In this document: piece after piece, positions 47,949 to 48,303 of the stretch
How positions within the stretch are numbered: the stretch's first letter is position 1
How the letters are laid out: every line of letters begins with the position of its first letter
Source: Gemmatimonadota bacterium
GTDB lineage: Bacteria; Gemmatimonadota; Gemmatimonadetes; Gemmatimonadales; GWC2-71-9
Length of the DNA stretch: 64,000 nt
NCBI GenBank assembly: GCA_046726475.1
Contig: JBKPAO010000060.1
Coordinates: forward strand, 1,664 to 65,663
Direction: 5' to 3'
Notes under the pieces: generated by a model
What the model saw: only the letters and a program-made list of their open reading frames with translations
What the model was told of the DNA's origin: nothing
Databases searched by the model: none
Translations under genes and position numbers: made by a program

Positions 47949-47976
47949 TTGACAGCCCCCTGGAATGGCATATAGT
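47949..47976 (+). promoter_or_regulatory. near-consensus sigma-70 promoter of the metY leader
   Basis: TTGACA (47949-54), 16 nt, then TATAGT (47971-76). Confidence 0.5.
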
Positions 47977-47983
47977 GGAATCA

Positions 47984-48220
47984 ATGGCGGAGATTTATGG
48001 CCACTTGCTCCCGCCAGGTGCTGAGGCACCGAACCAAAGAGCTAAAGCGCCGGAACTCGCCCTCCGCGCTCCTGGCCCGGGGGGCTTTGTGCTCCCGCCG
48101 ACATTCATTCGGGGTTTCCTGGTGCGTTGTGAGCTCGTGATGTGTTGCCCAATTCTCTGTATGTGTCGCCCCGAAACGGGGTGGACGGCGCATCCGGCGT
48201 TGTGGGAGACCAAGATTTAG
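47984..48220 (+). CDS. candidate leaderless regulatory leader ORF (78 codons) with a Cys/Met codon cluster
   Basis: The ATG lies 8 nt after the -10 element. The peptide ends ...[32 protein letters not shown], with 5 Cys and 2 Met codons within 48128-48166. The stop lies 22 nt before the terminator stem. Coding status is unproven. Confidence 0.3.
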
Positions 48221-48241
48221 AGCTCTCTGACCAGACGACCC

Positions 48242-48282
48242 GAGGCCCGGCCCACTCCTGTGAGCCGGGCCTTCACTTTTTT
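48242..48282 (+). terminator. intrinsic terminator/attenuator immediately upstream of metY
   Basis: GAGGCCCGGC (48242-51), a 12-nt loop, then GCCGGGCCTTC (48264-74), followed by AC and TTTTTT (48277-82). The metY SD GGAGGAG lies at 48290-96. Confidence 0.6.
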
Positions 48283-48303
48283 GCCAGATGGAGGAGCACG
48301 ACG

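Follow-up and report, generated by a model that had tools for sequence, protein, structure and literature searches.

Two predicted transcription-termination switches in series, a SAM-II-type riboswitch variant and a Cys/Met leader-peptide attenuator, ahead of metY in Gemmatimonadales

Classical leader-peptide attenuators are known from trp, his, leu, thr, pheA and ilv of proteobacteria (for the mechanism, see PMC4007540), and in the literature that we searched methionine biosynthesis is controlled by riboswitches, T-boxes or proteins. Here we describe the leader of metY, which lies upstream of metX, in a 64,000-nucleotide (nt) stretch of contig JBKPAO010000060.1 from a Gemmatimonadota bacterium; the whole of this stretch is called the window below. 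Comparison with related loci makes it likely that the metY–metX leader contains, one behind the other, two switches that act by transcription termination and that each pair a sensor with an intrinsic terminator: a riboswitch related to the SAM-II class (SAM, S-adenosylmethionine; module 1) and a short upstream open reading frame (uORF) rich in Cys and Met codons (module 2). Like the classical attenuators, module 2 has a short leader ORF enriched in codons for the regulated amino acids and a terminator before the first structural gene, and its RNA would offer three mutually exclusive pairings, 1:2, 2:3 and 3:4, with the codons in or next to segment 1 and the stop placed such that a ribosome that does not stall would prevent 2:3. 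It differs from them in that Cys and Met would be sensed jointly, in its Gemmatimonadota host, in its place in series behind a riboswitch, and in a proposed antiterminator that encloses ~55 nt instead of forming a compact hairpin.

In mycobacteria, leaderless polycysteine small ORFs (sORFs) act on the downstream ribosome-binding site (RBS) (Canestrari et al. 2020, bioRxiv 10.1101/834739). Cys-codon leader peptides have further been predicted before cys and cbs genes in Actinobacteria, where terminator hairpins were not found (Seliverstov et al. 2005, PMC1262725), and the leaderless leader peptides predicted in Deinococcus deserti include one with two Cys before cysS (PMC4007540). With the mycobacterial and actinobacterial leaders, the metY uORF shares clustered Cys codons, a short ORF before sulfur amino-acid genes and, as we read it, sensing through stalling on Cys codons. 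In two of its relatives (L004 and L084) it also appears to be leaderless, as in mycobacteria, whereas in the window it starts at least 138 nt from the predicted transcription start. Unlike the mycobacterial and actinobacterial leaders, it mixes Met with the Cys codons and is joined to an intrinsic terminator that covaries and to a proposed 1:2/2:3 arrangement. Our literature search, whose incomplete coverage makes it weak evidence, turned up no Cys/Met leader before metY, and no terminator-bearing leader-peptide attenuator for Met or for Cys and Met.

As a rule, the promoter of a SAM-II element lies a few nt 5′ of stem P1, and P2 is followed by an intrinsic terminator (Corbino et al. 2005, PMC1273637; PMC2258182). 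Module 1 resembles this ‘metA element’ (RF00521; PMC1273637) in combining P1 with an H-type pseudoknot, formed by the 3′ part of the P1 loop with a 3′ tail, in the conserved GAUUU, GCC, CUUGC, AAAcAA and GCUAAAG letters, and in its setting, with a promoter just 5′ of P1, a terminator 3′ of the pseudoknot and methionine genes downstream. It departs from SAM-II in a 15–28-nt hairpin between the P1 3′ strand and the A-rich strand and in a proximal pseudoknot helix extended to GCUC:GAGC; moreover, the RF00521 model gives no match and the phylum lies outside those first described. No inserted-hairpin SAM-II variant is described in the literature searched, the coverage of which was incomplete. A tandem of SAM-I and adenosylcobalamin (AdoCbl) riboswitches reportedly precedes metE of Bacillus clausii. 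As proposed, the metY leader is like that tandem in having two independent sensors with their own terminators in series before a methionine gene, so that either signal alone could stop transcription; unlike it, the second sensor would be a translated leader peptide, and the two inputs would be a metabolite (SAM) and the charging of transfer RNA (tRNA) with Cys and Met.

The comparison drew on 80 genome loci and 80 metagenome loci encoding MetY relatives. The best MetY matches are in Gemmatimonadales metagenome-assembled genomes (MAGs) at 87, 85, 83 and 81% identity, with metagenome contigs reaching 88%. Eleven Gemmatimonadales loci (L001–L005 and L081–L086) could be aligned with the window leader, which gives the 12 leaders referred to below. 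Their alignment has two separate conserved blocks, with a terminator-like hairpin after each (Table 1).

Table 1. Coordinates of the metY leader features within the window
Feature	Position	Strand	Details and basis
metY leader	47977-48303	+	~330 nt ahead of metY/metX, two modules
Sigma-70-type promoter	47949..47976	+	TTGACA (47949-47954), 16 nt, TATAGT (47971-47976); 11/12 match
SAM-II-type riboswitch aptamer, variant with inserted hairpin	47986..48051	+	Alignment to RF00521 consensus and canonical elements, covariation
P1	47986-90 with 48011-15	+	Aptamer part; GGCGG with CCGCC
L1	47991-98	+	Aptamer part; AGAUUUAU
Pseudoknot 5′ strand	47999-48001, 48004-06, 48007-10	+	Aptamer part; GGC, CUU, GCUC
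Inserted hairpin	48016-48030	+	Aptamer part
A-rich L3	48031-38	+	Aptamer part
Pseudoknot 3′ strand	48039-42, 48045-47, 48049-51	+	Aptamer part; GAGC, AAG, GCC
Terminator 1	48059..48093	+	Stem GCCCUCCG...CGGGGGGC then UUUGUGCU; terminator scan (48068-48085) and folding
Short Cys/Met-rich leader ORF	48122..48220	+	(V) + 31 amino acids (aa); start GTG 48122 or ATG 48140, stop TAG 48218-20; conservation in 12 leaders
Regulatory codons	48128-30, 48140-48, 48158-66	+	Cys/Met codons of the uORF
Hairpin 1:2, proposed anti-antiterminator	48162..48192	+	Segment 1 UGUGUCGCCCCG (with last Cys codon), segment 2 CGGGG(UGGA)CGGCGCA; predicted in 12/12, covarying
Segment 2, 5′ strand of proposed antiterminator	48178..48194	+	GGGGUGGACGGCGCAUC, pairs with 48242-48258; ribosome-masked folds
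Terminator 2 (segments 3:4)	48242..48282	+	GAGGCCCGGC-C-CAC, loop UCCU, GUG-A-GCCGGGCCUU, CAC, UUUUUU; folding, covariation
metY Shine–Dalgarno sequence (SD) and start codon	48290..48306	+	GGAGGAG 48290-48296, ATG 48304-48306; sequence, ORF list

The block that makes up module 1 is common to nine relatives and reads CGGCGG-N-AUUUA-N-GGCCACUUGCUCCCGCC-[hairpin]-RAACAAAGAGCUAAAGNGCC. Four other Gemmatimonadota loci (L030, L040, L050 and L062) carry a canonical SAM-II element at the same place before metY (RF00521, 40–53 bits), and the RF00521 consensus CCGUGGuGAUUUGacCGGCCGGCUUGCAgCCACGUUAAAcAAgUCGCUAAAgAGGCC matches the window element letter for letter, save for the hairpin between the P1 3′ strand and the A-rich strand. 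When the ten variant sequences are aligned with these four canonical ones (alignment A2), 22 columns are invariant, including P1 GG..GG, L1 UUU, GCC, UUGC, A.CAA and CUAAA, and 91% of the cells in P1 and the pseudoknot are paired, as against 31–48% with the partners slid. Four pairs show two-sided change: C-G to U-A in P1, G-C to C-G in the distal pseudoknot helix, and, in the proximal one, U-A to A-U as well as the C-G to U-A by which GCUC:GAGC becomes GUUC:GAAC in L086. The insert forms a hairpin in 10/10 variants and differs between them in sequence and length. A covariance model built from A2 (R1) has a single match in the window, at 81.5 bits, and also detects SAM-II-like elements on which it was not trained before metY in L019, L055 and L123 (37 bits) and in L106, L119, L128 and L132 (50–58 bits). 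The element is thus by homology a SAM-II-type aptamer, and its RNA, by analogy with the class, probably senses SAM. Terminator 1 follows it, with counterparts in L002, L003, L005 and L083 that carry clean U5–U8 tracts.

Upstream of this aptamer, the metY promoter is the sole promoter-like site in 47000–49000, where shuffles average 0.3, and relatives have TTGAC(A/G) boxes at the equivalent spot. Transcription is predicted to start near 47983, a few nt 5′ of P1. Metatranscriptome contigs from close relatives begin at 47994 and 48000, which is suggestive only, as contigs can break at variants.

Module 2 is marked by five Cys and two Met codons among the 13 codons at 48128–48166. Across the six frames of the 64-kb window there is just one other 12-codon stretch with six Cys plus Met, antisense within a 668-aa ORF; the density at the uORF exceeds chance. 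An ATG-TGY run stands at the uORF position in all 12 leaders, and an in-frame start lies 0–6 codons 5′ of the ‘MCC’ run. The runs themselves vary: MCCPILCMC in the window, MCCRMIPCS in L001, MCCCIPCS in L002, MCRCHCKCTPC in L003, MCPQMCIC in L004, MCCRQCKC in L005, MCRCLMPCCPC in L083, MTARCRCLCCMC in L084 and MPMPMCHLM in L086. In 11 of the 12 leaders the uORF stop falls ~23–50 nt 5′ of terminator 2, between segments 2 and 3. The short uORF has, in its codons and in the position of its stop, the conserved features of a leader peptide that probably senses Cys/Met shortage via ribosome stalling. The promoter, a 78-codon ORF, the Cys/Met cluster, the terminator and the SD had all been located correctly in the initial annotation of this DNA, which was also right about the 15-residue Cys/Met peptide and the locally AT-richer patch around it (41% G+C over 48140–48166, compared with 64% in the window). 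The comparative evidence backs its proposal that the Cys/Met codons are read by a ribosome-mediated attenuator whose end is the terminator at 48242–48282, and the mycobacterial polycysteine leaderless precedent that it named does exist (Canestrari et al., bioRxiv 10.1101/834739).

Further candidate parts of an attenuator lie around and behind the uORF. Hairpin 1:2 is predicted at the same place in 12/12 leaders with −12 to −22 kcal/mol, and its stems covary (CGCCCC/GGGGUG, CACCCC/GGGGUG, CACUC/GAGUG in L004, GCCCC/GGGGC in L083 and CCUC/GAGG in L086); the conserved GGGGUGGAC block is its 3′ strand. Terminator 2 pairs G48242–C48251 with G48264–U48273, is extended by CAC/GUG and runs into U6 at 48277–48282, the hairpin having −26.4 kcal/mol. 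Over the 12 leaders 90% of its cells are paired, against 18–50% when slid, with 17 compensatory cells in five pairs. A simple terminator scan missed it, probably because its stem is bulged and 3 nt separate the stem from the U run. Segment 2, in turn, complements the 5′ arm and loop of terminator 2 (GGGGUGG/CCACUCC, CGG/CCG), and this 2:3 pairing reaches 75% paired cells on the alignment versus 34–61% slid. To these counts applies that the MAFFT alignment (A3) places L083 and L086 off by 1–2 columns in segment 2, which makes them conservative. Folds of transcripts cut before the 3′ arm of terminator 2 were also made with a ribosome masked at defined positions: with the mask on the Cys/Met codons, segment 2 pairs with the terminator 2 5′ arm in 12/12 leaders, whereas with the mask at the stop codon it does not in any of the 11 that have the stop.

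Taken together, these parts suggest the following scheme. In the first switch, by analogy with SAM-II, bound SAM would lock the pseudoknot and let terminator 1 (48059–48093) form. In the second, a ribosome would translate the short ORF (48122/48140–48220). Scarce Cys-tRNA or Met-tRNA would cause it to stall on the UGU, UGC and AUG codons at 48140–48166 with its footprint over segment 1 (48162–48173); segment 2 (from 48178), freed in this way, would pair with the 5′ arm of terminator 2 (48242–48258), so that no terminator would form and transcription would read through into metY. With ample charged tRNA, the ribosome would move on toward the stop at 48218, between segments 2 and 3, hairpin 1:2 would re-form behind it, and terminator 2 would end transcription. 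Were the ORF not translated, 1:2 and 3:4 would both form, again with termination as the outcome. We infer here the identity of the ligand, the translation of the uORF, the stalling and a kinetic competition of 2:3 with 3:4. Because the terminators stand in series, full metY–metX expression would need low SAM and poor Cys/Met-tRNA charging together. As for why Cys might be sensed, MetY makes homocysteine from sulfide without using cysteine, and induction at low Cys would spare Cys and report sulfur status.

Could module 2 instead be purely an RNA switch, that is, an unclassified riboswitch or a protein-binding leader in which UGU, UGC and AUG are a by-product of a UG-rich strand pairing with a downstream UCGGCAYGU block, and nothing is translated? 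By eye, AUGUGCUG complements the conserved CGGCACAU/CGGCACGU block in several relatives, the leader folds better than shuffles (z = −2.5), and SDs before the uORF are weak. In addition, the block 3′ of the Cys/Met run (GGGGTGGAC/GGGGUGGAC) is read as GWT in one subgroup and as GVD in another and, being read in two different frames, is conserved as RNA and not as peptide. Yet TGT and TGC swap at the same positions across the 12 leaders, an exchange that preserves the amino acid and not the base, and the intervening codons vary freely; one metatranscriptome relative has TGC changed to TGT beside CCA-ATT changed to CGT-GCA. In-frame stops directly 5′ of the short uORF in L004 and L084 likewise speak against an RNA-only element, as do the Cys/Met-rich ORFs that recur before metY in other phyla in unrelated nucleotide sequence, always with an ATG start in one frame on the coding strand and always with a stop before a terminator. 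Nor does any Rfam family match: the uORF model of the initial annotation survives this check, with no significant match over 48100–48282. We therefore regard a switch made of RNA only as unlikely and keep to the leader-peptide attenuator.

In a second alternative, the Cys/Met uORF would act, like the mycobacterial polycysteine sORFs, on metY translation, through coupling or by sequestering the RBS, and 48242–48282, no longer the step that is regulated, would be a stability element or a terminator that is constitutive or leaky. The sole experimentally studied Cys-rich sORFs do act on translation (10.1101/834739), several relatives have poor U tracts behind the hairpin, and the minimum-energy fold of the whole leader pairs 48091–48097 with the metY SD region. 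Examined as a candidate for SD sequestration, however, this pairing proved not to be conserved and, in relatives, to be no better than shuffles, and it was rejected. The SD also lies 17 nt past the hairpin and outside it, and in 12/12 leaders segment 2 complements the hairpin 5′ arm with segment 1 competing for segment 2, which is the geometry of transcriptional attenuation. Control at the level of translation consequently strikes us as distinctly improbable, and attenuation of transcription remains the preferred reading.

In the form given by the initial annotation, the attenuator was to be a single 78-codon leaderless ORF, with stalling in its last third controlling the sole terminator at 48242–48282. 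The ORF exists, in that the ATG at 47984–47986, 8 nt after the −10 box, opens 78 codons to the TAG at 48218–48220 in the same frame as a 97-aa ORF (47927..48220), and leaderless initiation is plausible in the group, as the short uORFs of L004 and L084 start 5–8 nt after a −10 box. However, this ATG sits at the 5′ edge of the aptamer, its G being the first base of P1, and it is replaced by ACG, GCG, TCG or CCG in 9/9 aptamer-bearing relatives. Since in five of these nine a stop also interrupts the frame between the start of the aptamer and the Cys codons, the long ORF is not conserved and the short one is. What is more, the first 70 nt of the long ORF are the conserved SAM-II-type aptamer with its covarying helices, which then has its own terminator, and long chance ORFs are common in DNA of 64% G+C. 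On these grounds there is very little to be said for the 78-codon ORF: alignment of the leaders in relatives bears out the Cys/Met codons and covarying helices but not its frame. A SAM-type riboswitch had been offered as an alternative to the uORF, and an element of SAM-II type is indeed present, albeit at 47986–48051 and not where it had been sought, and the two occur in series, not as an either/or. Two GAGCTC copies (48131–48136 and 48220–48225) had further been thought able to close a P1-like helix; they exist and pair in the minimum-energy fold, but in relatives both lack conservation and complementarity, and the model does not need this helix. Finally, the idea that the short ORF, small, conserved and with many cysteines as it is, encodes a functional Cys-rich micro-protein (e.g. 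a metal-binding peptide or the precursor of a ribosomally made, post-translationally modified peptide, RiPP) and stands upstream of metY by chance can be all but dismissed, because only its composition is conserved, with Cys number and positions varying and the C-terminal part in different frames, there is no Pfam match (in a scan made with the 78-aa ORF), and the ORF is embedded in alternative terminator/antiterminator pairings.

Several observations nonetheless weigh against the two-switch reading. For module 1, Rfam reports only a tRNA over the whole window at the gathering threshold, no SAM-type or other riboswitch in 47760–48400 at E ≤ 10, and no SAM-family match in nine relatives at E ≤ 5, which leaves the element under the RF00521 gathering threshold (36 bits); the 15–28-nt inserted hairpin probably explains this absent score. 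The U tract of terminator 1 (UUUGUGCU) is weak in the window and no convincing conserved antiterminator for this terminator was found among the Gemmatimonadales leaders, and for these two reasons switching by module 1 rests on the analogy with SAM-II. For module 2, the RBS before the uORF is, by eye, weak or absent in several relatives, the uORF start in the window is ambiguous between GTG 48122 and ATG 48140, and the U tracts of terminator 2 are poor in L001, L005, L083, L084 and L085. In one leader, L082 (L082:1819–2003), the GGGGG run of segment 2 is longer by one G, such that the uORF meets no stop ahead of the terminator and runs out of frame into metY; this +1 shift either reflects a homopolymer error in the metagenome contig or is natural, in which case it would defeat the attenuator. 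The soil and sediment metatranscriptome contigs, from relatives 88–99% identical, place the leader in RNA libraries, which speaks of presence and not of regulation, and their ends may be assembly breaks.

Of the elements of a classical attenuator, antiterminator 2:3 is the least secure, while the others are well supported by the comparison of leaders. The covariation of 2:3 is weak, with three cells, a count equalled by 100–115 of 500 shuffles, and its duplex energy in the window (−21.3) is no better than that of shuffles (−20.4 ± 3.3). This energy is uninformative because in G+C-rich RNA a shuffled segment 2 pairs nearly as well with the C-rich arm; a cross-species energy matrix was uninformative too, and support for 2:3 is for that reason taken from position and covariation. 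When a ribosome is masked in full-length minimum-energy folds, terminator 2 is moreover always retained, which makes the model dependent on co-transcriptional kinetics; of the masked folds, only those cut ahead of the 3′ arm are informative.

Cys/Met-rich leaders are not confined to Gemmatimonadales. The enrichment is specific to strand and leader: with a cut-off of at least six Cys plus Met in 12 codons, 20 of 81 leaders (the window and the 80 genome-collection loci) pass in the forward direction and one of 81 in reverse; over all loci with enough upstream sequence, the figures are 26 of 136 metY leaders versus 13 of 2276 background segments from the same loci (Fisher p = 1e-24). Such stretches stand before metY in at least four phylum-level groups other than Gemmatimonadota, with examples from Chloroflexota (MHCAMCPCMGMPGRPRR, MCRCMAMCMAMRRRP), Ignavibacteriota/Bacteroidota (MCCCCMMCIRTS, MCLCCMMMCMSSRKD, MAMCLSCMMMCSS), Lysobacterales (MCCCMCMG) and Eisenbacteria (MRMTMCMTMAMCMC). 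In the examples that were folded, an intrinsic terminator comes after the uORF, and the 5′ arm of this terminator is complementary to a segment in or just after the ORF (in Chloroflexota CGGCCCC with GGGGCCG, in Ignavibacteriota GGAAGGAC with GCCCUUCC); the loci with this same logic are L012, L042 and L093 (Chloroflexota), L023, L045, L051, L054, L121 and L144 (Ignavibacteriota/Bacteroidota), L068 (Lysobacterales) and L077 (Eisenbacteria). Eight further loci of Chloroflexota/Limnocylindria (L006, L007, L015, L016, L088, L096, L098 and L099) have conserved short leader ORFs with three to four Met/Cys codons, e.g. MCMPWRPRRLE and MMAMPGRPRSAE. RPR codons come next in these ORFs; in the two loci folded, their RNA, CGGCCCC, is complementary to the terminator that comes after. 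Since such Chloroflexota ORFs fall under the cut-off, the class is probably larger than counted.

These uORFs often adjoin a SAM-I or SAM-II riboswitch. A canonical SAM-II accompanies the uORF leader in L050, and an R1-detected SAM-II-like element does so in L055 and L123. A SAM-I riboswitch and a Cys/Met uORF with its own terminator share one leader in six Ignavibacteriota/Bacteroidota loci (L023, L045, L051, L054, L057 and L074), the uORF coming first in five of them and the riboswitch in L074. The two modules are separable: the leaders of L004 (2770–3000) and L084 (40–275) have the uORF without a SAM-II-type module and the metatranscriptome contig X26, which joins 48096 to 48262, has the riboswitch module without the uORF. 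From this distribution we put forward, tentatively and with slightly more doubt than confidence, that Cys/Met leader-peptide attenuators before metY form a widespread undescribed class (Gemmatimonadota, Chloroflexota, Ignavibacteriota/Bacteroidota, Gammaproteobacteria and Eisenbacteria), usually in series with SAM-I or SAM-II as a two-input gate of SAM pool and Cys/Met-tRNA charging. The locus described here would be its Gemmatimonadales form, with a SAM-II variant that Rfam does not detect.

As to the genes themselves, the metY product is, judged by its sequence, an O-acetylhomoserine sulfhydrylase, with matches to the O-acetylhomoserine/O-acetylserine (OAH/OAS) sulfhydrylase subfamily TIGR01326 (661 bits) and to Pfam Cys_Met_Meta_PP (1e-138); NCBIfam groups MetY with bifunctional OAH/OAS sulfhydrylases. 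The product of metX downstream matches TIGR01392 with E = 4e-93 and 312 bits, under the 500-bit cut-off. Between the two lies a beta-carbonic-anhydrase-like ORF of 175 aa at 49678–50202 (+), which matches Pfam Pro_CA (2.7e-12), has the CxDxR and HxxC motifs and gave no match in an NCBIfam search. A carbonic-anhydrase-like gene also stands directly 3′ of metY in L084, L001 and L002 and directly 5′ of it in the cyanobacterial L058. Because this linkage to metY is conserved, one may speculate that the gene aids sulfide supply, e.g. by hydrolysis of carbonyl sulfide (COS) or carbon disulfide (CS2), rather than CO2 hydration.

Two genes run divergently from metY: one, at 47259–47762 (−), encodes a DUF520 protein (2e-60), the other, at 45986–47278 (−), a protein with a SpoIID domain (9e-24), and neither has an obvious tie to sulfur metabolism. 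Just 5′ of the metY promoter, at 47848–47943, there is a palindromic repeat, CATCCTGAGCGAAGCGAAGGATC, with an inverted copy. More copies are found at 51267–51289 (−) and 59720–59742 (+), so that the window has four matches where none is expected. In soil metatranscriptomes and metagenomes, contig depth over the repeat is higher than over its flanks by a factor of 5–40, which identifies it as a multi-copy element resembling repetitive extragenic palindromic (REP) sequences; this upstream palindrome also yields spurious microRNA-like Rfam matches.

For annotation, the findings imply that short Cys/Met-rich ORFs before metY deserve to be recorded as regulatory leaders, and that SAM-II may be under-counted in Gemmatimonadota, as the Rfam model here missed SAM-II-type aptamers that carry an inserted hairpin. 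If the proposed mechanism is true, methionine and cysteine would join the amino acids sensed by classical attenuation, which would then extend to poorly studied soil phyla, and the metY leader would represent a natural two-input gate in which a riboswitch and a ribosome-based sensor act on one mRNA.

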